The notes below the pieces were generated by a model. The model did no database searches. It worked only from the letters and a program-made list of their open reading frames with translations, and was not told the origin of the DNA. A stretch of 64,000 bases of DNA from an uncultured Sutterella sp. (GTDB lineage Bacteria > Pseudomonadota > Gammaproteobacteria > Burkholderiales > Burkholderiaceae_F), in NCBI GenBank assembly GCA_905202595.1, contig CAJKSP010000002.1, forward strand, positions 13,870-77,869. Direction: 5' to 3'. Position 1 is the first letter of the stretch, and every line of letters begins with the position of its first letter. Positions 3,692-26,648 of the stretch are shown one piece after another. The position numbers and the translations under genes were made by a program.

Positions 3692-6164
3692 TCAGAATAA
3701 ATAACTCAAGCGGCCGGACATTAGCCACGTGTCTGCCATTTTGTTGCCGACAGTGCGTTCAAGGTCAAATTGAACTTTCAAGACATTCTTCCAAGCGAAA
3801 GAGCCTCCAACGCCAAAATTGCACCACGTGTCGAGGTCGCCCCAGACTTTTTTAAGTTCATCCTGAGGTGCAAGAAATTCGGCGTTTTGACCGCTCGTAA
3901 ATTGGTGAAGAACATCGCCGCGTACATAAAACTCGCCGAACATATTTGCGCCGTTCAGCTGTTTGCCAGTTCTCAAGCCTGCACGCCCAATGAGACTCGT
4001 GTCGCTGTCGGCTTGAATTTTGATGCCGCGCTGCACGCTGTAGTCGAAGCTGTCCAAATAGGTAGCCTGGATCTGCAACTGCGGTTCAAAGAAAATGCCT
4101 GTGGCTGAGTCGGTCAGCGTATGGCCGACTTCAGCGGAGATGGACGCATAGTTTTGTTCAAACTCTCCGGATGTGCCATAGACATTGCCAACGGCACTGA
4201 TTTCGGAAGAAATGCGGCCCAGGCGACCGACAATATCAAGATAGTTTGCTCCGACAGTCAGGGTGTCATACAAGGCAAATTCGTAACGCTTCATATTGCC
4301 TGAACCTCGAACATCAAGAAGGTCCGTATCGCCTTCGGTATAGCCAAACCAAGCGCCGGCAGCGTTAGTGTCGGTCAGTTGCCTTTCAATGCCGAGTGTG
4401 ATTCCTGTGCGATCCCAGCGGTACTGATTGGCGGCGCCGGAGCTTCCGTGATTAACGCGGATCCAAAGGCCATGCAAAGGCGAGTCCGGCTGACGAATCG
4501 TTTCTGAGAGACGACGGTCGTGACGCTCCATTTCGACAGCGGCGTTGTAGCTGGCCCAACCTGCGCCCGTTATGCCTTGCGTAGCTTCAGATTCATGGAG
4601 CGTTACCCGATAGATATACCAATTTTGGCCATTTAAATAATCAGAGGGATTAACAATAAATGTTTTAGATCCATTTGGATCTTCAGCATGTTCGAGTGTA
4701 GTAGATCGCTCCCAATATTCGTTGGCTTCAATATCTTCTTCAGTAATGGTTTTGCTGGCTATGTCGAGCTCATAATTCCAAAGCCCATCTCCTTCAAGAT
4801 TTTCTTTAGAAGCAAATTTAATGTGAGAACCCTCTTTAACTAGTGCAAATGTGAGTGTATTCTCTGTGGAAATTGATTTTAGGAGATGGAGTTGATATGG
4901 TTCGAAATAATGTGTGGATTCAGTGTTGTTAATGCCTGATCCGGATTCAATAAACAGCATATCGGAATTGGCTTTGTTTTCGGCATCCAGATCCATTCTG
5001 AAAATGCCGCCGCTTCCTTGGAGATTGCCGATGATGACGTAATCATGCTTATATTCCGGATGCATTGCATAATCATATTCTCCATTATTCATTGCATCCC
5101 AGAGGCCGATTTCTTTCCAGGTATTCTGAAGATTTTCGTCAAAAAGATTGATGATTCCGCCATTTAAAGTGACTTCCGAGATTCGTTTGGGAATAGCCCA
5201 GTATGGCGTATTGTTTTTATAGCGGACATAAGCTAGAGAAAGGTAAGACCATTGAGCGCCGTCTTCAAGGGTAATGTTGAACTTGTCTCCCGCGGAAGAT
5301 CCATTGTCCCATGTGGAATTCTGCCAAGTTTTCTCATCGCCGAACCAGTAGGAATCGGTTCCGGATAGCGTTATGGAAATGGTGTTGGCAGCGTTATCGC
5401 CTGTACCTTCGCTATTCGGATCATCCATCATGTCAAAGGAGCCGACAAGCTGATTTTGGGTAGAGAGAAAAGTCACTGAAGAGCCTTTCTTGGCGCTGAT
5501 GAGATCGGGCTGACCGGCTAAAACCCAAAAACGTGCCGTGCCGCCAGCTTGTCCGATCACTGCACTAGATTGACTGCTTAAGTAAAGCCCATTGGCGCCA
5601 ATTGATGACAACTGTTCTTCATTGGAAAGGTTGTGACGAACTTCAACGGAAATATTTTTCCCTGTGATGTTCAACTGACCCTTTGAGGCGGCATATAAAG
5701 CATATGTCCCGACGTCACTTGAAAAGTTGGGACTGATGGATTCGGCAGTTATGTTGAAGTCGAGATCGTTTGTTAAATTCAGCGTGCCGCCGTTCGTTGC
5801 TTGAATAGAGAACTGGCTATGTGAGATGAGCGGCTTTTGATTAATTTTAAGTGGAGAGTTGATGGTTTCATTATTTTGAGCGCCATCAACTGTTATTAAA
5901 TTGAAACTAGGCTGGTGCTGGTGGGATGCATCTATGCCATTTCCATTGATGTGAATCCATCCATTCTGATCGGGATCAGATAAAGAAACTCCTGTGCCGA
6001 AGGAGATGGCTGCACTGCTTTCTTGAATGGCGCCAATGCTAAATAAGGCGACAAGTACTGCATGCGGGAGATGTCTATGTTTTAAGAAATGGGTTGCAGT
6101 ATGAGCTGCACGTGTGTGAAAGTGGGGGGGGGGGTATTAACGCCATATCTGAATCTGTTTTCAT
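3692..6164 (-). CDS. autotransporter (type Va) adhesin-like protein with C-terminal beta-barrel, N-terminus frameshifted at a poly-G tract (candidate phase-variable gene or pseudogene in OFF phase)
   Basis: The track ORF 3692..5674 (660 aa) ends ...TWLMSGRLSYLF, an autotransporter beta-domain with aromatic C-terminus. The same frame stays open, stop to stop, up to about 6136 with no ATG/GTG/TTG. That stretch encodes a signal-peptide-like segment (..FLKHRHLPHAVLVALFSIGAIQESSAAIS..). An ATG at 6164-6162 (MKTDSDMALIPPPP) is in the +1 frame, and the two frames meet at a run of 11 G (+ strand 6124-6134). Local GC is about 40% against about 66% genome-wide. Confidence 0.8.
6124..6134. repeat. homopolymeric G11 (C11 on coding strand) tract inside the 5' end of the autotransporter gene
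   Basis: Read directly from the sequence: ...gtgaaagtgggggggggggtattaa... On the coding strand it encodes a poly-Pro (CCC) run. Removing 1 nt or adding 2 nt would fuse the ATG at 6164 to the passenger/barrel frame. Confidence 0.75.
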
Positions 6165-6482
6165 CGAAGTAATAGGAATATGGATGCCTTAAATATACTA
6201 AGCGAATTATTTATATATCTAGCGATTAAATATTATGGGCGATCTGATTAAAAGAAGAAAGCGGATTTTTAGCGTATTCGATATTCAATGATGAAATCAA
6301 TAATCTTTTTCCTCAATTAGGTGATGTCAACAGAAATTAATTCCTGGATGGACGACTGCGGTCGCCGAGGCGTAGCATCGAAGCGGCTCGAGGCCGGCAG
6401 CCCGGGAACATGCCCGCCGCCGCGCTCGAGCGCAGCAGAATCATGACGGCGCCTCGCGCGCCGCAGAGAGGGCCTGGAAGCC

Positions 6483-7811
6483 ATGACGCAGAGCACATTC
6501 ACCGACCGGCAGCCGGCGGGCGAACCCACCGAAGCCATCCTTACGCTTAACGACGGCCGCGCGCCGATCCGCCTTCCTGTGAAGCGCGGCGAAGCCGGCG
6601 CGCCTGCCGTGGACGTCTCGTCGCTCTACAAGGCCGAGCATCTCATGACGTACGATCCGGGCTTTCAGAGCACGGCGTCCTGCGCGAGCGCCGTGAGCTA
6701 CGTCGACGGCGAGGCGGGGCTGCTCACCTACCGCGGCTATCCGATCGAAGAGCTTGCCGAGAAGTGCGACTACCTCGGCGTCTGCCAGCTTCTGCTCAAG
6801 GGAGAGCTGCCGACGCCGGACGAGGACCGCGAATTCCGCAGCATGATCCGCCGCCACACGATGGTGCATCAGCAGGTGTCGCTGCTTCTGAACGGCTTTC
6901 GCCGCGACGCGCATCCGATGTCGATTCTCGTGGGGCTCGTCGGCGCGCTCGCTGCGTTCTATCCGCTGGATCCGGCGATGAGCGAAACGGAGCAGCACCG
7001 GCTCGCCGCCATGATGATGCTCGCGAAGATGCCGACGCTGGTGGCCATGAGCTACCGCTATTCCGTGGGCTGGCCGCTCTCCTACCCGGACAACAGCCTC
7101 TCCTATGCGGCGAACTTTCTGAAGATGATGTTCGGGCTGCCCGTCGAGCCCTATGCGCCGCATCCGGCCGCCGTGAAGGCGCTCGACAAGATTCTCATTC
7201 TGCATGCCGAGCACGAGCAGAATGCCTCGACCACGACCGTGCGCCTCTGCGCGAGCGCGGGCGCCAATCCCTATCAGGCGGTGGCGGCGGGCATCGCCTG
7301 CCTCTCGGGGCCCCGGCACGGCGGCGCCAACGAGCGCGCGCTTCAGATGCTCGAGGCGCTCGAGGCCGAGGGCGGCGAAGCGGCGCTGCCGGGCTTCATC
7401 CGGCGCGTCAAGAATCATGAGGTCCGCCTCATGGGCTTCGGCCACCGCGTCTACCGCACGTACGATCCGAGAGCGAAGATCATGCGCGGGATCTGCCACG
7501 AGCTCCTTGATGCGCTCGGCCTGAAGGACGATCCGACTTTCAAGCTGGCGCTCGCGCTCGAAAAGATCGCGCTCGAGGACGAGTACTTCGTCACCCGCTA
7601 TCTCTATCCGAACGTCGACTTCTATTCGGGCATCGTGCAGCGCGCGATCGGCATCCCGACGCCGCTCTTTACGGCGATCTTCGCCATGGCGAGAACGGCC
7701 GGCTGGTTCGCTCAGAAGAACGAGCTCCTCGAGTCGTCCGATCTGAAGCTCGCGCGCCCGCGCCAGGTCTACGTCGGCTCGCCCGTGCGGCATCTGCCTT
7801 CGCGCTGCTGA
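6483..7811 (+). CDS. gltA: citrate synthase (type II)
   Basis: 442-aa ORF with MTQSTF...LTLNDGRAPIRLPV...YDPGFQSTASCASAVSYVDGEAGLLTYRGYPIEELA...LMGFGHRVY. It aligns along its full length with the GltA of E. coli. Confidence 0.95.
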   Translation: MTQSTFTDRQPAGEPTEAILTLNDGRAPIRLPVKRGEAGAPAVDVSSLYKAEHLMTYDPGFQSTASCASAVSYVDGEAGLLTYRGYPIEELAEKCDYLGVCQLLLKGELPTPDEDREFRSMIRRHTMVHQQVSLLLNGFRRDAHPMSILVGLVGALAAFYPLDPAMSETEQHRLAAMMMLAKMPTLVAMSYRYSVGWPLSYPDNSLSYAANFLKMMFGLPVEPYAPHPAAVKALDKILILHAEHEQNASTTTVRLCASAGANPYQAVAAGIACLSGPRHGGANERALQMLEALEAEGGEAALPGFIRRVKNHEVRLMGFGHRVYRTYDPRAKIMRGICHELLDALGLKDDPTFKLALALEKIALEDEYFVTRYLYPNVDFYSGIVQRAIGIPTPLFTAIFAMARTAGWFAQKNELLESSDLKLARPRQVYVGSPVRHLPSRC

Positions 7812-18270: not shown

Positions 18271-19605
18271 TCAGAGCAAGCCCGAGATCAGCACGGCGAT
18301 GACGAGGATCGGCGCAATCACGCAGCAGCTGAAGCGCAGCATCCTCCGCCAGCCTTCCGAGCGGGGCGTCTCGCCCGCAATGTCGGCCGACACCTGGGGC
18401 CAGAGCTTCACGCCCGCGAGGTAGAGGATCACGAGGCCGCCGATCGGCAGCGAGATGTTGCTCGTAAAGAAGTCGAAGATGTCGAAGAAGGTCTTGCCGG
18501 CGATGGGCTTCACGTCGGCGAGCATGCCGAACGAGAGGCAGGGCAGCGCGCCCACGACGGCGAGCGCCACGGTGGAGATGACGGAGGCCTTCGGGCGGCT
18601 GTAGCCCTTTTCATCGGCGAGGTACGCGACGAGGATCTCGATGAGCGAAACCGACGACGTGATGGCGGCGACGATGAGGCAGAGGTAGAAGATCACGGCG
18701 AAGAGCTGCCCGAAGGGCATCTGCGCAAAGACGGCCGGCATCGTGATGAAGGTGAGGCCGGGGCCGGCGGTCGGCGAGAGGCCGAAGGCGAAGACCGAAG
18801 GCATCACCATGAGGCCGCCCATGATGCTCGAGACGACCGAGAGGAAGGCGATCCAGAGGCAGGCGCGCGAAACGTTCGTGCGCCGGTCGACGTAGGAGCC
18901 GTAGGTCATCATGCAGCCGCAGCCCACGCAGAGCGAGAAGAAGGTGAAGCCCATCGCCTGCAGGAGCGCGTGGAACGTGAAGGCCTCGGGGTCGAATTTG
19001 AAGAGGAATTCAAGGCCCGCTGCGGCGCCCGGCAGCATCAGTCCGCGGATGATGATCGCGAGCATCAGGAAGAAGAGGAGCGGCATGAGGATCTTGCTCA
19101 CGCGCTCGATGCCGCGCGAGACGTCGAGCGCGACGATGAGGCCGTTGAGAAGCAGGAAGAGCCACTGAAAGCCGAGCGCCATCACGGGATCGGCCGTGAA
19201 GTCTGCAAAGTGCTTGCCGAGAAGGGACTGATCGGCGATGAGTCCCTGTCCGACGAGCGCTTCGCAGAAGTAGGCGATCGTCCAGCCGCCGATGGCCGAA
19301 TAGAACGAGAGAACGAGAAAGCCCGTGAGGACGCCGAGATAGCCCGCCGGCAGAAAGGCGCGCCCGGCAAGCCGGCGGTAGGTCGTGACGATGCCGCCCT
19401 TGCCGAGGCGTCCGAGCGACACTTCGGCGATGAGGATGACGAGGCCTGCCGTGAAGGTGAGGATGATGTAGGGGAAGAGAAAAGCGCTGCCGCCGTTCGT
19501 TCCCGCCATATAGGGGAACTTCCAAATCGCGCCGAGGCCGACGGCTGCGCCGGCGCTAGCTAGCACGAATCCGATGCGGCTCGTCCAAGTGCTGCGTTCG
19601 CTCAT
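18271..19605 (-). CDS. sodium-dependent transporter, NSS/SNF family, paralog C
   Basis: 444 aa with RIGFVLASAGAAVGLGAIWKFPYMAGTNGGSAFLFPY. Confidence 0.9.
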   Translation of the reverse strand: MSERSTWTSRIGFVLASAGAAVGLGAIWKFPYMAGTNGGSAFLFPYIILTFTAGLVILIAEVSLGRLGKGGIVTTYRRLAGRAFLPAGYLGVLTGFLVLSFYSAIGGWTIAYFCEALVGQGLIADQSLLGKHFADFTADPVMALGFQWLFLLLNGLIVALDVSRGIERVSKILMPLLFFLMLAIIIRGLMLPGAAAGLEFLFKFDPEAFTFHALLQAMGFTFFSLCVGCGCMMTYGSYVDRRTNVSRACLWIAFLSVVSSIMGGLMVMPSVFAFGLSPTAGPGLTFITMPAVFAQMPFGQLFAVIFYLCLIVAAITSSVSLIEILVAYLADEKGYSRPKASVISTVALAVVGALPCLSFGMLADVKPIAGKTFFDIFDFFTSNISLPIGGLVILYLAGVKLWPQVSADIAGETPRSEGWRRMLRFSCCVIAPILVIAVLISGLL

Positions 19606-19782
19606 GGTGTTTGGTTCCTGTCATTTAGGGTTGAGGGGGAACGGCTTCAGCGTTCGGCGGCTGTTCTTTTGGGAGCGGCGCCGCTTAGAAAGCGCGCGAA
19701 GTCTCTTCAATCTTATCGAGGCTGAGACGGCATCGAGACGGAAGATGAGGAGAAAGCGCTTGTTTTCAGGGGCTGAAGCGAA

Positions 19783-19821
19783 GCGGTCCCGCCGTCCGAA
19801 CTCATCGGACGAGCGGGACCG
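19783..19821 (-). terminator. long stable hairpin about 35 nt downstream of NSS-D stop (probable terminator)
   Basis: GCGGTCCCGCCGTCCGA-actca-TCGGACGAGCGGGACCG, a stem of about 16 bp with one bulge. The U-tract on the minus strand is weak. Confidence 0.45.
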
Positions 19822-19854
19822 TTTCAAAGCCGAGCTTTCAAAAGGGAAGCAAGA

Positions 19855-21201
19855 TCAGCCGAAGAGGCCTTGGAATACCGCTACCAGCACGAGAATCGGG
19901 GCGAGGATCGCCACGAGGAAGCGAATGCAGCTCAGCACGGCTGCGCCGAAGTTGCGCGGCGTGGAGAGCTCTTCGCGGAAGGCGGGCCAGGCCTTCCAGC
20001 CCATGAGGGCCGCCACGGCGAGGCCGCCGATCGGCATCATGAAGTTCGTGCAGACGAAGTCAAGCAGGTCGAAGAAGTTGCGTCCGCCCACCGTGAAGCC
20101 GCTCCAGACCCCGAAGGAGAGCGCGGACACGGCGCCGAGGAGGAAGAGGAGCACGAAGCTCACGATCACAGCCGCTCGGCGGCTGAAGCGCCATTCGTTG
20201 TGCATGAAGGCGACCACGACTTCGAGAAGCGACACCGCGCTCGTGAGCGCCGCCGTGAGGAGGCAGATGTAGAAGAGGAACGCGAAGAGGCTGCCGAGCG
20301 GCACGTGCGAGAAGATCATCGGCACGGTCACGAAGACGAGGCCCGGGCCGCCGTTGGGCTCGAGCCCGAAGGCAAAGACGGCCGGCATGATCATGAGGCC
20401 CGCCAGCAGCGCTGCCATGTCCGCAAGAACGGCCACCCAGGCCGATGCGGTCGGAATGCAGACGTCCTGCTTCAGGTACGAGCCGTAGGTGATGAGCATG
20501 CCGCCGCCGAGCGAGAGCGAGAAGAACGTGAAGCCCATCGCGTTGAGAATCGACGAAGAGGTGACGTTTTCTAGCTTGAAGTTGAAGAGGTACTCGACGC
20601 CGGCCCAGGCGCCGTCGAGCGTGAGCGAGCGGCCGATGAGCGCGAGCATGAGGATGAAGAGCGTCGGCATCAGGTACTTCGAGAGGCGCTCGATGCCCTG
20701 TTCAACGCCGAGGACGACGGTGCCGCAGGTGATGGCTAAAAAGGCGAAGTGCCAGCCCACGTTGAGGTAGCCGTTCGAGACGAGGTCGGCGAAGTGCGCC
20801 TTGAGTCCTTCGGCGTCGGGCGAGGCTACGGAGCCGCGGATGGCATCGACGAGGTAGGCCACGCACCAGCCGCCAACAACCGAGTAGTAGGAGAGGATCA
20901 GAAAGCTCGTGAGCACGGCGAAGGTGCCGAGCGCAGCAAAGAGCTTGCCGCCGCCCACCTTGCGCATGGCCGAGACGCAGGAGCCGCGGCCGCGGCGGCC
21001 GATCGCGATTTCAGCCATGACGAGCGACAGGCCGATCGTCAGCGAGAAGACGATGTAGGGGATGATGAAGGCGGCGCCGCCGTTGGCGCCGGCCCAGAAG
21101 GGGAACTTCCAGATCGCCCCGATGCCGATCGCCGAGCCGGCTGAGGCCAGGATGAAGCCGAGTCTGGAGGTCCACTGCGCTGCTGTGGAGGTGGTTGCCA
21201 T
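19855..21201 (-). CDS. sodium-dependent transporter, NSS/SNF family, paralog D
   Basis: 448 aa with RLGFILASAGSAIGIGAIWKFPFWAGANGGAAFIIPY. RBS AAGGA lies 8 nt upstream of the ATG. Confidence 0.9.
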   Translation of the reverse strand: MATTSTAAQWTSRLGFILASAGSAIGIGAIWKFPFWAGANGGAAFIIPYIVFSLTIGLSLVMAEIAIGRRGRGSCVSAMRKVGGGKLFAALGTFAVLTSFLILSYYSVVGGWCVAYLVDAIRGSVASPDAEGLKAHFADLVSNGYLNVGWHFAFLAITCGTVVLGVEQGIERLSKYLMPTLFILMLALIGRSLTLDGAWAGVEYLFNFKLENVTSSSILNAMGFTFFSLSLGGGMLITYGSYLKQDVCIPTASAWVAVLADMAALLAGLMIMPAVFAFGLEPNGGPGLVFVTVPMIFSHVPLGSLFAFLFYICLLTAALTSAVSLLEVVVAFMHNEWRFSRRAAVIVSFVLLFLLGAVSALSFGVWSGFTVGGRNFFDLLDFVCTNFMMPIGGLAVAALMGWKAWPAFREELSTPRNFGAAVLSCIRFLVAILAPILVLVAVFQGLFG

Positions 21202-23275: not shown

Positions 23276-23306
23276 CGTATAGAAGCGATCCGCTAGAATT
23301 CAGCCG

Positions 23307-23345
23307 TGCCGCTCCAAAAGCGGGGCGCTCTTTTTTCTTTTGCTT
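23307..23345 (+). terminator. intrinsic terminator downstream of AIM24-family gene
   Basis: CCGC-tccaaaa-GCGG / GC-rich hairpin followed by CTCTTTTTTCTTTTGCTTTT. Confidence 0.5.
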
Positions 23346-23362
23346 TTATCCTGAGGCTTCCC

Positions 23363-24010
23363 TTGCAGAACCGCTCAACGATCTATCCCATCATTGCCCG
23401 CGAAGGCTGGCCCATCATCGGCGCCGGCGTCGTCGTGACGCTTGCCTTCTGGATCCTCGACTGGGAGCTGCTGGCGTTCCTCGCGCTTGTCTTTACGGCG
23501 TTCAGCCTCAATTTCTTCCGCGATCCCGTGCGTCCTGAGCCGCAGGATCCCCGCGACGTCGTGAGTCCTGTGGACGGCCGAGTCTGCAAGGTGCAGAAAG
23601 CGGTGAATCCGGAGACGGGCGAAGAGGCGATTCAGATTTCAATCTTCATGAACGTCTTCGACGTGCACAGCCAGAAGGCGCCGGTGGCGGGCGTCATTGA
23701 AAAAATCACCTACACGCCAGGACTTTTCCTGTCGGCCGATCTTGACAAGGCGTCGACCGACAACGAGCGCAATGCCGTGACGGTGCGCATGGCCGACGGC
23801 CGCCGGGTGACTTTCATTCAGGTGGCGGGCCTCGTGGCTCGTCGCATTCTCTGCCATGCAGCCGTGGGCGAGACGCTTCGGCGCGGCGAGCGCTACGGCT
23901 TCATCCGCTTCGGCAGCCGCGTCGATGTGTATCTGCCGCCCGAGGCTGAGGTGAAGTGCGTGATCGGCGAGAAGGTAGCCGGCGTGCTCTCCACCATTGC
24001 AAGGCTTTAA
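23363..24010 (+). CDS. psd: phosphatidylserine decarboxylase (short Asd/archaeal-type Psd proenzyme)
   Basis: ...RSTIYPIIAREGWPIIG...PVDGRV...GERYGFIRFGSRVDVYLP shows PSD motifs, including the FGS self-cleavage region. The track start 23306 would place the upstream terminator inside the CDS. A TTG at about 23363, preceded by GAGG, is preferred. Confidence 0.8.
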   Translation: MQNRSTIYPIIAREGWPIIGAGVVVTLAFWILDWELLAFLALVFTAFSLNFFRDPVRPEPQDPRDVVSPVDGRVCKVQKAVNPETGEEAIQISIFMNVFDVHSQKAPVAGVIEKITYTPGLFLSADLDKASTDNERNAVTVRMADGRRVTFIQVAGLVARRILCHAAVGETLRRGERYGFIRFGSRVDVYLPPEAEVKCVIGEKVAGVLSTIARL

Positions 24011-24115: not shown

Positions 24116-25339
24116 TCAAGGCGTCTTTTTCCCTCGAGGCCGGCAGACGACGCGACGGTTTTCGATTTCAATCGAATCCTCAGGGATCCAAGGAAAGCGC
24201 TGCGCAGGCAGCGCGGCTTCGCCGCCATGGCCGTCTTGGCTGCCGCGAGGCTCGGCAGCGCCTTCCGGCGCAGCAGAGGCTGCAGCCTCAGCGCCATTGG
24301 CCGGCGCCGAAGCGACAACGGCTTTTTCCGACTTGAGGATCGATTGCCGGCGCATGGCGAGCCAGCCGTCGAGCAGGAGCGAGTCCTCGAGCGTCGCAGC
24401 GATTGTCCAGCGCGAGGGCTTGCCGTTTGAGCCGAGCGCCGCAGGCTCGATCTGCTGCGTGCTGTTGAAGGGGGTTTCGCGAAGATTCTGAACGAGCGCC
24501 GGATCGTCGGTCAGCAGCGTCAGGCGCACCGTGCGGCCCTGCGCATAGTTGAAGGGTGCGCGCGCCGTGTAGTCCTCGAGGTCGAAGTCCGCGGGCCGCT
24601 CGAAGTCGAAGGCGGTGACCCGCGCCGACTCAATGCGGTGAAGCGCCAGGTGGCGGCAGTCGCTGAAGCCTTCAAAGCGGCAGACGAGGTAAGTGCGCAC
24701 ATCCTGCTGCACGAGGCCGAGCGGCATGACGCGCGCCTCCGTGATCTTGCCGCGGGCGCTGCGGTAGCGAACGGCGAGGAACCGGTCAAGGAAAAGCGCT
24801 TCGGTGACGTTCTCGAAGACGTTCTGACGGATGACGGGCGGCATGAAGGGCATGCCGGGGCTCACGACCTTCACCTTTCTCAGCCACGAGCAGGCCTTGC
24901 TGCGGGAGCCGGCCTTCTCGTCAAGCTGCACCTGCTGCTTGGCATCGCGAAAGAGGGGCTTGAGGCTTTGAAGAATGCCCGCCGGCAGCTGAAAGCGCAG
25001 GTGCTCTTCGGCAAGCCGCAGCAGCAGCGTTTCCTGGGGCGTCAGCGCCGGCAGGTGAAGGCCCTTGGAGGCTGTGCTCCACTGCACGCGGTAAGGCCTG
25101 GCGCTGGCGTCGACGGTGACGGGAAAGACGTCAGCGTGCTCGCGGATGGTCTTGAGATAGCGCTGCAGCGTCCGGCGGTGCATGGCAATGCCTTCGCCGG
25201 CAAGCGCCGCTTCAATTTCCCGCACGGTTGTCCATCGGCGCTGCGGAATGAGCTGCAGGATGCGCAGCAGCGTCACGGCATTTTCAAAAAGTCCGGCGCC
25301 GCTTTCGTCGACGGCCGGCCGGTCATTGCGCTTCGGCAT
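24116..25339 (-). CDS. WYL-domain transcriptional regulator (N-terminal HTH + WYL + WCX; YafY/PafBC/BrxR-like architecture)
   Basis: Likely start MPKRNDRPAV.. at 25339. HTH is TVREIEAALAGEGIAMHRRTLQRYLKTI. The WYL core is RYRSARGKITEARVMPLGLVQQDVRTYLVCRFEGFSDCRHLALHRI, with a C-terminal extension. The track ORF extends 19 codons further upstream. Confidence 0.8.
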   Translation of the reverse strand: MPKRNDRPAVDESGAGLFENAVTLLRILQLIPQRRWTTVREIEAALAGEGIAMHRRTLQRYLKTIREHADVFPVTVDASARPYRVQWSTASKGLHLPALTPQETLLLRLAEEHLRFQLPAGILQSLKPLFRDAKQQVQLDEKAGSRSKACSWLRKVKVVSPGMPFMPPVIRQNVFENVTEALFLDRFLAVRYRSARGKITEARVMPLGLVQQDVRTYLVCRFEGFSDCRHLALHRIESARVTAFDFERPADFDLEDYTARAPFNYAQGRTVRLTLLTDDPALVQNLRETPFNSTQQIEPAALGSNGKPSRWTIAATLEDSLLLDGWLAMRRQSILKSEKAVVASAPANGAEAAASAAPEGAAEPRGSQDGHGGEAALPAQRFPWIPEDSIEIENRRVVCRPRGKKTP

Positions 25340-25409
25340 GATGAAGGGACTCCTTGATGCGCTCGGCGGGGCAAGGCGCGGCGCCGTGCAGGACAAACAG
25401 CGCGCAAAG

Positions 25410-25444
25410 CAAAGCCTCGGCGGCTACACGGCGCCGAGGCTTTG
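25410..25444 (-). terminator. strong hairpin downstream of pssA (probable terminator)
   Basis: CAAAGCCTCGGCG-gctacacgg-CGCCGAGGCTTTG, a perfect 13-bp stem. The minus strand continues CTTTGCGCGCTGTTTGT. Confidence 0.55.
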
Positions 25445-25498: not shown

Positions 25499-26362
25499 CT
25501 AGTGCTGAGCGGCGTTCGCTTCGGCAGCTTCGGCTTCCTCAAGCGCCTTCTGCTGCGCCGCAAGGTCGGCCTGAATCGGATTCGGGCGGCCGCGCCACCA
25601 GCACCAGAACTCGTAGACGTAGCCCGAGAGCGCATAGATGCAGAAGAGAACGAAGATCGAGAGCGACGGATTGCTCGAAATGACGATGAAGGCGAGCGCC
25701 GCGACGACGATGACCCAGAAGGGAATGGTGCGCACGACGGCGTAGCTCTTGCCGGAGAAGAACGGCGCGTTGCTCACCATGGTGAGGCCGGCGTAGAGCG
25801 TCACGACGAAGGCAATGTCGCTGCGATAGACCGCAAGCCAGTCCGGGAGCTTGTTTTCGACGGCAAGCCAAACGAAGCCGCAGACGAGCGCGGCGGCGGC
25901 CGGGCTCGGCAGGCCTTGGAAGTAGTTCTTGCTCACGACGCCGACATTGCAGTTGAAGCGCGCAAGGCGCAGGATCGCGCAGAAGGCGTAGATGAAGGCG
26001 ACAGCCCAGCCGAGCTTGCCGAGCTCGACGAGCGAGTATTCGTAGACGATGAGTGCAGGAGCGACGCCGAAGCTCACGGCGTCGGCGAGGCTGTCCATCT
26101 GCACGCCGAATTCCGACTGCGTGTGGGTGAGGCGCGCCACGCGTCCGTCCATGCCGTCAAAGAGCATGGAGAAGAAGACCGCGATGGCTGCGGCGGAAAA
26201 GGAGCCGTTCATCGCCTGAATGATGCCGTAGAAGGCGGCAAAGAATGCGGCTGCCGTAAAGGCGTTCGGCAAAACGTAGATGCTTTTTGAGCGGACGGCC
26301 TGAAGCCGGCGCTGGCCGATGCTCGCGAGGCTTTCGCGGCGGGGAGCGTTGCTGTTAGTCAT
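25499..26362 (-). CDS. pssA: CDP-diacylglycerol--serine O-phosphatidyltransferase (CDP-alcohol phosphatidyltransferase family)
   Basis: 287 aa. ...NAFTAAAFFAAFYGIIQA...FFSMLFDGMDGRVARL... carries the D-G-x2-A-R...G...D...D CDP-alcohol transferase motif and is multi-TM. Confidence 0.85.
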   Translation of the reverse strand: MTNSNAPRRESLASIGQRRLQAVRSKSIYVLPNAFTAAAFFAAFYGIIQAMNGSFSAAAIAVFFSMLFDGMDGRVARLTHTQSEFGVQMDSLADAVSFGVAPALIVYEYSLVELGKLGWAVAFIYAFCAILRLARFNCNVGVVSKNYFQGLPSPAAAALVCGFVWLAVENKLPDWLAVYRSDIAFVVTLYAGLTMVSNAPFFSGKSYAVVRTIPFWVIVVAALAFIVISSNPSLSIFVLFCIYALSGYVYEFWCWWRGRPNPIQADLAAQQKALEEAEAAEANAAQH

Positions 26363-26648
26363 ATTTTTTGCTTAGGGGCGCAGGTGGTTTTCCGCGGCGC
26401 GGACCAGCGTGCATTTTAGCGGCGTCGCCGCTCAGGTTGAACCGCGAGAATTTTCTTAGCGCGATTGCGATTGCATCAGAAGTTTGCCGGCGGCCGGCCC
26501 GCCCCTTGCCGCTGCGGCGCGCCGAGGCGCCGGAAGGGCGCGTCGTACAATGCCGGAGTTTTGCAAATTCATTCATTCAGCGTCTGCCGCTTAGGCGTCA
26601 GATGCTGCAGCGATCGGTCCGGCACCCTCCCGGGCCATTGGAGCCGTC

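Follow-up and report, generated by a model that had tools for sequence, protein, structure and literature searches.

A genus-specific wHTH-WYL-WCX regulator beside pssA in Sutterella: probably a stand-alone sensor in a position set by history

Does a transcription factor whose gene lies between psd and pssA, two genes of phosphatidylethanolamine (PE) synthesis, control that synthesis, or has it come to lie there by chance? The question is raised by a gene at 24116..25339 (minus strand) in a 64,000-nucleotide stretch of DNA from an uncultured Sutterella sp. (GenBank assembly GCA_905202595.1, contig CAJKSP010000002.1, positions 13,870 to 77,869; hereafter the window). The open reading frame (ORF) table, Pfam, AlphaFold and Foldseek, together with 11 Sutterella orthologues, identify its product as a winged helix-turn-helix (wHTH)-WYL-WCX transcription factor of the YafY/DriD/CapW/BrxR type. 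The original prediction, made from the letters of the window, described the gene as inserted between psd and pssA, called the setting atypical and proposed that the regulator could link lipid synthesis to a small-molecule or nucleic-acid signal. Our data suggest a stand-alone sensor-regulator, probably responsive to single-stranded DNA (ssDNA), whose position between pssA and psd is a historical accident, a reading to which we assign a probability of roughly 60%. The association of position is real, but it is confined to the genus and history offers the best explanation for it; the regulator is probably not dedicated to PE synthesis.

The gene product has 407 aa plus a stop codon in the six-frame ORF table, so the predicted ORF is present while its predicted length of 408 aa had counted the stop. 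The open frame spans 24116..25396 on the minus strand, and initiation from the TTG at 25396 instead would lengthen the product to 426 aa; the likely start is the ATG at 25339, because orthologues begin at an equivalent MP(K/R) and an AAGGAG lies 10 nt upstream. Our search of 5.8 billion proteins returned 385 homologues, of which the named ones are Sutterella proteins called "YafY family protein" or "helix-turn-helix transcriptional regulator", and we aligned homologues as a set of 28 (A1), a set of the 15 closest (A2) and a larger set of 115. The HMM check proposed earlier gave a divided answer: the WYL domain passes PF13280 (E = 2.5e-12, 47.1 bits against a gathering cut-off of 21.8, aa 174-241), whereas no Pfam HTH model scores above its cut-off on the regulator (sub-threshold HTH_Tnp_Tc3_2 match only) and WCX (PF25583) has no Pfam match in the regulator itself. 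Across the 115-sequence alignment, Pfam finds WYL in 115/115 and WCX PF25583 in 47/115. An NCBIfam search of the regulator returned no matching model.

The AlphaFold2 model of the regulator, built from the 115-sequence alignment, has a mean pLDDT (predicted local distance difference test) of 80.3. When this model was compared with the PDB by Foldseek, full-length DriD ranked first (E = 7e-14, 332 aligned columns), followed by PafBC (1e-10), CapW (7e-8) and BrxR (3.5e-7), the CapW and BrxR matches spanning 1e-7 to 1e-6; the alignments cover the HTH of DriD, CapW and BrxR. A family profile searched against solved structures matched the WYL plus C-terminal domain of DriD (7U02/7TZV, E = 1e-8, aligned to profile position 328) as well as full-length DriD, PafBC and BrxR. 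Membership of the wHTH-WYL-WCX class (PafBC/DriD/CapW/BrxR) is thereby established, as had been predicted, with the HTH and WCX assignments supported by predicted structure and profile homology and not by a direct Pfam match. The predicted wHTH DNA-binding domain (aa 15-87; 25079..25297, minus strand; pLDDT 90-95) consists of three helices and a beta-wing (H15-30, H39-48, H55-67, E74-77, E84-87), and its R56, Q59 and R60 are invariant or nearly so in the homologue alignments. It is joined to the WYL domain by a helical linker (aa 101-153; 24881..25039, minus strand; helices 101-117, 120-125, 127-142 and 148-153, pLDDT 60-77) that, by analogy with the CapW structures (PMC11662680), would form a domain-swapped dimer crossing. 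The Sm-like, putatively ligand-sensing WYL domain itself (aa 172-245; 24605..24826, minus strand), which carries the motif R215-T-Y-L, is modelled as a beta-barrel and coincides with the PF13280 match. The WCX domain follows (aa 254-341; 24317..24580, minus strand), a confident alpha/beta domain (pLDDT ~90) that superposes on DriD in the AlphaFold and Foldseek comparison and corresponds to the DriD C-domain in the family profile.

Both flanking genes are what they had been taken for, as each passes a curated NCBIfam equivalog model: psd (23306..24010, plus strand) encodes a phosphatidylserine decarboxylase proenzyme (PF02666; NF003680, 290.8 against 262 bits) and pssA (25499..26362, minus strand) a CDP-diacylglycerol-serine O-phosphatidyltransferase (PF01066; TIGR00473, 121.5 against 107 bits). 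Sharing the strand of pssA, the regulator lies downstream of it after a 159-nt gap and is convergent with psd across a 105-nt gap. Since psd and pssA are convergent here, they share no common transcript or operon.

To see how far this arrangement extends, we searched GTDB, represented by one genome for each species, with the 15 closest homologues as query and obtained 80 loci; A1 had been tried as the query and was dropped as too diverse. The window's neighbour genes were then compared with those 80 loci by tblastn. All 11 loci with a regulator at 45-63% identity belong to Sutterella (S. seckii, S. massiliensis, S. wadsworthensis DSM 14016 and eight metagenome-assembled genomes), and all 11 show the order of the window, with the FAA hydrolase gene on the opposite strand, pssA, the regulator and convergent psd. 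The gap from pssA to the regulator is 113-208 nt in all 12 Sutterella loci. However, the collinearity is not limited to these genes: an order of deacetylase, transglycosylase, EamA, FAA, pssA ... psd, AIM24, SIMPL, SNF, SNF is kept over ~14 kb in the genus. Because the whole neighbourhood is collinear, adjacency to pssA is no more telling than adjacency to any other neighbour. Identities to the window are 45-63% for the regulator, 84-92% for pssA, ~70% for psd and 40-46% for the FAA hydrolase. The interval between regulator and psd is empty in the window and six loci and elsewhere holds a lipoprotein gene (L001), an M20 peptidase gene (L003), a glycosyltransferase gene (L006) or, in S. massiliensis, LysR, MFS and lipoprotein genes; these are ordinary genes, and no defence cargo was found downstream of the regulator in species with such extra DNA.

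The claim of an insertion is borne out by lineages outside this group, for which six further contexts were chosen through lower-identity pssA homologues (L086-L091). In three loci of more distant Sutterellaceae (L086-L088; pssA at 58-63% identity), psd, pssA and the FAA hydrolase gene are adjacent and co-directional without the regulator, an arrangement that is presumably ancestral; a similar protein is named Duodenibacillus. Because these relatives have the pair adjacent without the regulator, we conclude that the regulator gene was inserted into a psd/pssA pair. The composition of the regulator gene is host-like (GC 0.654; GC at third codon positions, GC3, 0.79), which argues that the insertion is old and the gene long resident.

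Three loci nearer to the window (L089-L091) have the Sutterella-type backbone, with pssA at ~78-81% identity, and differ only in the slot that the regulator would occupy. In L091, a stretch of 413 nt without genes separates pssA from convergent psd, and in L090, pssA and psd are co-directional and the regulator is absent. The slot of L089 (6911-7588), whose host is a very abundant Sutterella-like species (1751 index blocks), holds a 225-aa HTH-WYL ORF that lacks WCX and has a degenerate WYL strand. This protein matches the regulator family over HTH and WYL by hhalign (probability 96.7%, E = 3e-10) and the regulator over the HTH only by pairwise BLASTP (2e-4), and it represents either an orthologue in decay or a minimal variant of two domains. 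In a neighbour-joining (NJ) tree of pssA, psd and FAA, L089 and then L090 plus L091 fall outside the regulator-bearing clade. Together with the named homologues and the genome scan, this tree suggests that the window organism belongs to Sutterella. Lineages with intact pssA and psd have thus lost the regulator, let it decay or never acquired it. The slot of L091 (6849-7263) also carries a fragment that resembles a tRNA 3' end (reverse complement GTCGGGTTCGAATCACTCCTTCTCCGCCA) and three copies of a GTTCACGA-N5-6-AGGAA-like repeat, features that may be the scar of an integrated element, and ARAGORN found no complete tRNA in it. The psd gene lies in opposite orientations in L090 (7040-7687) and L091 (7263-7910) between otherwise identical flanks, a single-gene inversion, and the order is psd then pssA in more distant Sutterellaceae versus pssA then psd in L090 and L091.

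Relatives at ~40% identity have other neighbours. In the regulator tree the pssA-linked clade is monophyletic and sister to other Sutterellaceae homologues, and among homologues at 38-44% identity none adjoins pssA or psd and the settings are varied, so that the placement next to unrelated genes that the original prediction had named as telling against it is found at this distance and not among the Sutterella orthologues. In six loci (L012, L013, L015, L019, L026 and L096) a homologue at 38-42% identity heads a WYL-recC-recB-(HAD)-recD cluster (5971-10428 in L012; 4011-13540 in L096), with a gap of 3-10 nt between the WYL gene and recC in most of them. A further homologue abuts recB/recD/dnaB (L018), and in a more distant relative (L095) recCBD follows rpsF-priB-rpsR-rplI without the regulator. 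Since WYL-recC-recB-recD operons occur among the nearest relatives, at six loci, the local family appears tied to DNA-end processing, and the pattern suggests that the recC-linked homologue is a probable ssDNA sensor controlling the RecBCD genes. In these related loci only, such an arrangement would set an ssDNA sensor over the enzyme that generates ssDNA and could reward study by those who work on WYL sensors; a WYL-recC operon was not described in the titles and abstracts that our literature search returned. The window does not contain recC. A word-based protein search for recC of Sutterella proper, meant to look for an upstream WYL paralogue, reached low-GC relatives only. Paralogous WYL genes were seen elsewhere: Candidatus Aphodousia faecipullorum (L014) has tandem WYL-regulator paralogues at 4630-5637 and 5712-6707, and a Diaphorobacter plasmid has three WYL genes within 6 kb.

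The transcription signals around the regulator point to a unit mostly separate from pssA. An inverted-repeat scan found a terminator-like hairpin after pssA (25410..25444, minus strand) with 13-nt perfect arms around a loop of 9 nt and GCTTTGCG after it. Most Sutterella loci have an equivalent GC-rich hairpin behind pssA, and its T-run is clear in L001-L005, L008 and L011; -10-like elements (TAAAAT/TACAAT) lie between hairpin and regulator start in L001, L002 and L008. Given these hairpins and the regulator's own -10-like elements in relatives, we regard it as mostly an independent transcription unit. Further upstream, our alignment of the FAA-pssA intergenic region from 13 loci has one conserved block, GCTAnAATGCA, which is probably the pssA promoter -10; in the window the putative -10 is TAAAAT at 26413..26418 (minus strand) within GCTAAAATGCA. 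The block is equally present in L089-L091, the three loci without an intact regulator. On the other side, psd starts 30 nt after an AIM24-family gene and, given this short distance, is probably co-transcribed with it. Searches for a shared operator yielded little: k-mer enumeration with mismatches over the upstream regions of 10 species gave GC-rich or terminator words only, inverted-repeat scans of the three intergenic regions gave the terminator hairpin and short GC-rich palindromes only, and comparison of regulator and pssA/psd upstream regions within species gave nothing recurrent but a generic -10-like TAAAATGCA in L001. Because an operator may be short and evolve fast, the power of such searches is limited, and ~44% of BrxR homologues also have no obvious inverted repeat (PMC9122601).

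Members of the WYL family are known to sense ssDNA and to control damage responses (DriD, PMC9186387; PafBC, PMC11804915; DdaA, PMC12392091). We mapped ssDNA contacts by hand from the DriD profile alignment and the residue lists in PMC9186387 and PMC11662680. In this mapping DriD Y168, Y192 and R204 and CapW R164 have the conserved equivalents Y192, Y217, R229 and R215 in the regulator, and the position of DriD R210 corresponds to R235. Y192, R215, Y217, R229 and R235 are all conserved family-wide, invariant or nearly so in the homologue alignments. The WYL strand reads V-R215-T-Y-L-V-C, nearer to S-N-Y-L-V of DriD than to the RWHVR that marks CapW/BrxR repressors on this strand (PMC11662680). 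A nucleic-acid ligand is therefore plausible on sequence grounds.

We hypothesize that a Sutterella ancestor rearranged the psd-pssA-FAA block and that a WYL gene landed in a rearrangement-prone slot downstream of pssA, where it would then have been inherited vertically in the genus with a collinear neighbourhood. The regulator would act as a dimer whose WYL/WCX cleft would bind a nucleic-acid ligand, by analogy with DriD, PafBC and CapW most likely ssDNA from damage or phage replication. Ligand binding would shift or re-orient the two wHTH domains and so alter transcription of the regulator's own gene, of unlinked targets, or of both. It may activate, as its structural rank next to DriD and its motif favour, or repress, as the operon-head position of its relatives favours.

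Several observations weigh against this reading of a stand-alone, ssDNA-responsive regulator. By the same hand mapping, the DriD ssDNA contacts R176, R178, W206 and R207 are T200, A202, L231 and A232 in the regulator, and the CapW/BrxR motif RWHVR reads RTYLV; because several contact residues are unconserved and RWHVR is replaced, the ligand may be something other than ssDNA. The 10-species motif search and the inverted-repeat scan found no conserved inverted repeat or operator upstream of the regulator. The hairpin after pssA has a weak T-run in the window, and no site emerged when 22.4-26.8 kb were scanned for sigma-70 promoters, the gap between pssA and the regulator included, so read-through or partial co-transcription from pssA into the regulator is possible there. 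Adjacency to pssA survives in 12 species though the other side of the regulator has been disrupted repeatedly, and this could reflect selection rather than inertia. Further, the NJ tree of the neighbour genes is unbootstrapped.

The alternative that survives best is an orphaned island regulator. Other WYL proteins control defence islands (BrxR, PMC9122601, PMC9122589; CapW, PMC9122588, PMC11662680), and the regulator could have arrived downstream of pssA at the head of a mobile defence or accessory cassette whose cargo has since been lost or swapped, persisting by autoregulation or controlling defence genes elsewhere. In support of this, one homologue at 43% identity (P0028) is followed by two GmrSD_N genes and has an AAA_15/21 ATPase gene close by on the other strand, which together resemble a defence cassette, and island-like contexts with DUF2779, NERD-UvrD helicase and SNF2 genes surround P0103 and the Diaphorobacter plasmid homologue. 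Homologues at ~40% identity occur on plasmids of several orders, one of which, on a Raoultella IncFII plasmid, lies ahead of a radical-SAM/PHP operon, while P0048 and P0053 lie among housekeeping genes and phage records yielded distant homologues only (25-27% identity). Gene content in Sutterella also varies exactly at the position directly downstream of the regulator, and the tRNA-3'-end-like fragment in the empty slot of L091 fits an integrated element. However, none of the variable downstream genes is recognisable as defence and several are on the opposite strand, PADLOC assigns the regulator only generic WYL/Cas-associated models, and the window contains no integrase, transposase or repeat boundaries. 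The absence of the RWHVR repressor motif, a structure nearer to the activator DriD, the host-like composition and the genus-wide conservation of functional residues speak against it as well, and we consider an orphaned island regulator unlikely. As had been predicted, Pfam shows no defence genes between 17.8 and 31.3 kb, and none lies within ~8 kb of the regulator. To call this atypical was an overstatement, since among WYL regulators DriD, PafBC and DdaA stand alone on the chromosome (PMC9186387, PMC6789036, PMC12392091) and a known defence system lies near just 48-61% of BrxR homologues (PMC9122601), so a WYL regulator at a housekeeping locus is not unusual.

Control of pssA, psd or both by the regulator, which would couple PE synthesis to a small-molecule or nucleic-acid signal, fares less well, and we consider it decidedly improbable. 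It could work through autoregulation of a pssA-WYL transcript or through convergent transcription into psd. In its favour are the plausible read-through in the window, the 12/12 Sutterella loci that keep pssA next to the regulator even where the psd side is disrupted, and the 105-nt gap between regulator and psd, where no terminator was found and convergent transcripts could overlap. Yet hairpins with T-runs follow pssA in most species, no motif is common to the upstream regions of the regulator and of pssA or psd, and the pssA -10 region is identical in the three loci without an intact regulator. The same pathway operates in outgroups and sister lineages, which do without the regulator, the collinearity of the whole neighbourhood makes the adjacency non-specific, and our literature search yielded no paper in which WYL regulators and phosphatidylserine synthase are connected. 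A link to lipid synthesis, as had been proposed, thus finds no support in this locus, and the site beside pssA should not count as evidence for lipid regulation.

It is highly improbable that the gene is a decaying or functionless remnant kept by inertia alone: the copy in L089 is truncated and highly diverged, L090 and L091 have none, and the regulator is far less conserved than pssA, but its ORF is intact in 12/12 species, ~60 positions are invariant in A2 (including HTH recognition-helix residues and WYL-domain arginines), two structure models (of the window protein and of its orthologue P0007) are confident, its divergence is no greater than that of the FAA hydrolase, and a short C-terminal motif is conserved despite a hypervariable linker.

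This linker and motif make up a clade-specific tail, owing to which the regulator is ~110 aa longer than CapW/BrxR. The linker (aa 342-385; 24185..24316, minus strand) is of low complexity and predicted to be disordered (pLDDT 44-65, and supported by orthologue tails), with pLDDT below 50 in the AlphaFold stretch ahead of the terminal hairpin. Its length (~15-120 aa) and sequence vary highly among orthologues (A1 columns 401-500), and its GC3 is 0.60 against 0.83 in the rest of the gene. The motif that follows, E387-DSIEIENRRV-V398 (24146..24181, minus strand), is predicted from orthologue alignments and AlphaFold to form a beta-hairpin (388-401 in the model; pLDDT ~91 for residues 391-400), and a second model, of the orthologue P0007 with a much shorter linker, again shows the hairpin (pLDDT ~80). 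The consensus [DE]xLx[VI]x[ND]R[RK][ILV]V is kept in 11 of the 12 pssA-linked orthologues and has diverged in S. wadsworthensis. Linker and motif are confined to the closest homologues (at least 45% identity) and missing in relatives at ~40% identity, and when profiled against PDB sequences the motif gave no meaningful match; the tethered hairpin is without counterpart in any characterised WYL family member. It could dock onto the WYL/WCX ligand cleft as a tethered pseudo-ligand and so be autoinhibitory. Alternatively, it could bring in a partner, which might conceivably belong to the membrane or to the PE pathway, and if that reading holds it would explain why the regulator has stayed beside pssA. 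That the Sutterella-clade tail is a new regulatory appendage or input for wHTH-WYL-WCX proteins, autoinhibitory or partner-docking, is a tentative and rather unlikely proposal; if the hairpin is a regulatory input, it is one previously undescribed for the family. The conserved hairpin could reward work by researchers on WYL sensors.

The remaining genes between 17.8 and 31.3 kb are assigned by Pfam to two SNF transporters, SIMPL, AIM24, an FAA-family hydrolase, EamA, an SLT_2 transglycosylase and a deacetylase. The SNF-family (sodium:neurotransmitter symporter) genes are tandem paralogues of ~47% identity (18271-21201, minus strand), and the pair accompanies the locus throughout the genus and is a triplet in L090 and L091. 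The window and seven related loci yielded no tRNA, and an Rfam search of 22.0-27.5 kb at a permissive E-value found no RNA family. Elsewhere in the window, a gene for a 660-aa autotransporter (PF03797 beta-domain; 3692-5674, minus strand) flanked by malate/lactate dehydrogenase and citrate synthase genes lies in a 2-kb block with a GC content of 0.46 against a background of ~0.65 and was probably acquired horizontally.

As a routine gain in annotation, our analysis adds a WYL regulator specific to the genus Sutterella, a commensal often present in the human gut. Its database homologues from Sutterella carry the NCBI name YafY family, a label for HTH-WYL proteins that is generic and has no functional content. 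CapW and BrxR, repressors that head CBASS, BREX and other defence islands, have the same architecture, and the ~40%-identity relatives of the regulator likewise sit as the first gene of a cassette. In contrast to them, the regulator has no defence system within ~8 kb, reads RTYLV for RWHVR, and showed no inverted-repeat operator upstream. The global DNA-damage-response activators PafBC of actinobacteria and DdaA of Moraxellaceae resemble it in being chromosomal, unlinked to their regulon and built on a WYL-based sensor (PMC6789036, PMC11804915, PMC12392091), and the recC-recB-recD cluster led by a homologue in sister lineages is a comparable DNA-repair setting; PafBC differs in its fused or heterodimeric double module. 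The closest parallel is DriD of Caulobacter crescentus (PDB 8TP8/8TPK/7TZV), an ssDNA-activated wHTH-WYL-WCX activator. Its identity to the regulator is ~19-20%, it lacks a disordered C-terminal tail and terminal hairpin, and its regulon (didA and others) and DNA box are known. Nevertheless, DriD is the best match in both structure and sequence profile, with the same order of three domains, a similarly degenerate WYL motif (NYL in DriD, TYL in the regulator) and a stand-alone chromosomal gene outside any defence island.

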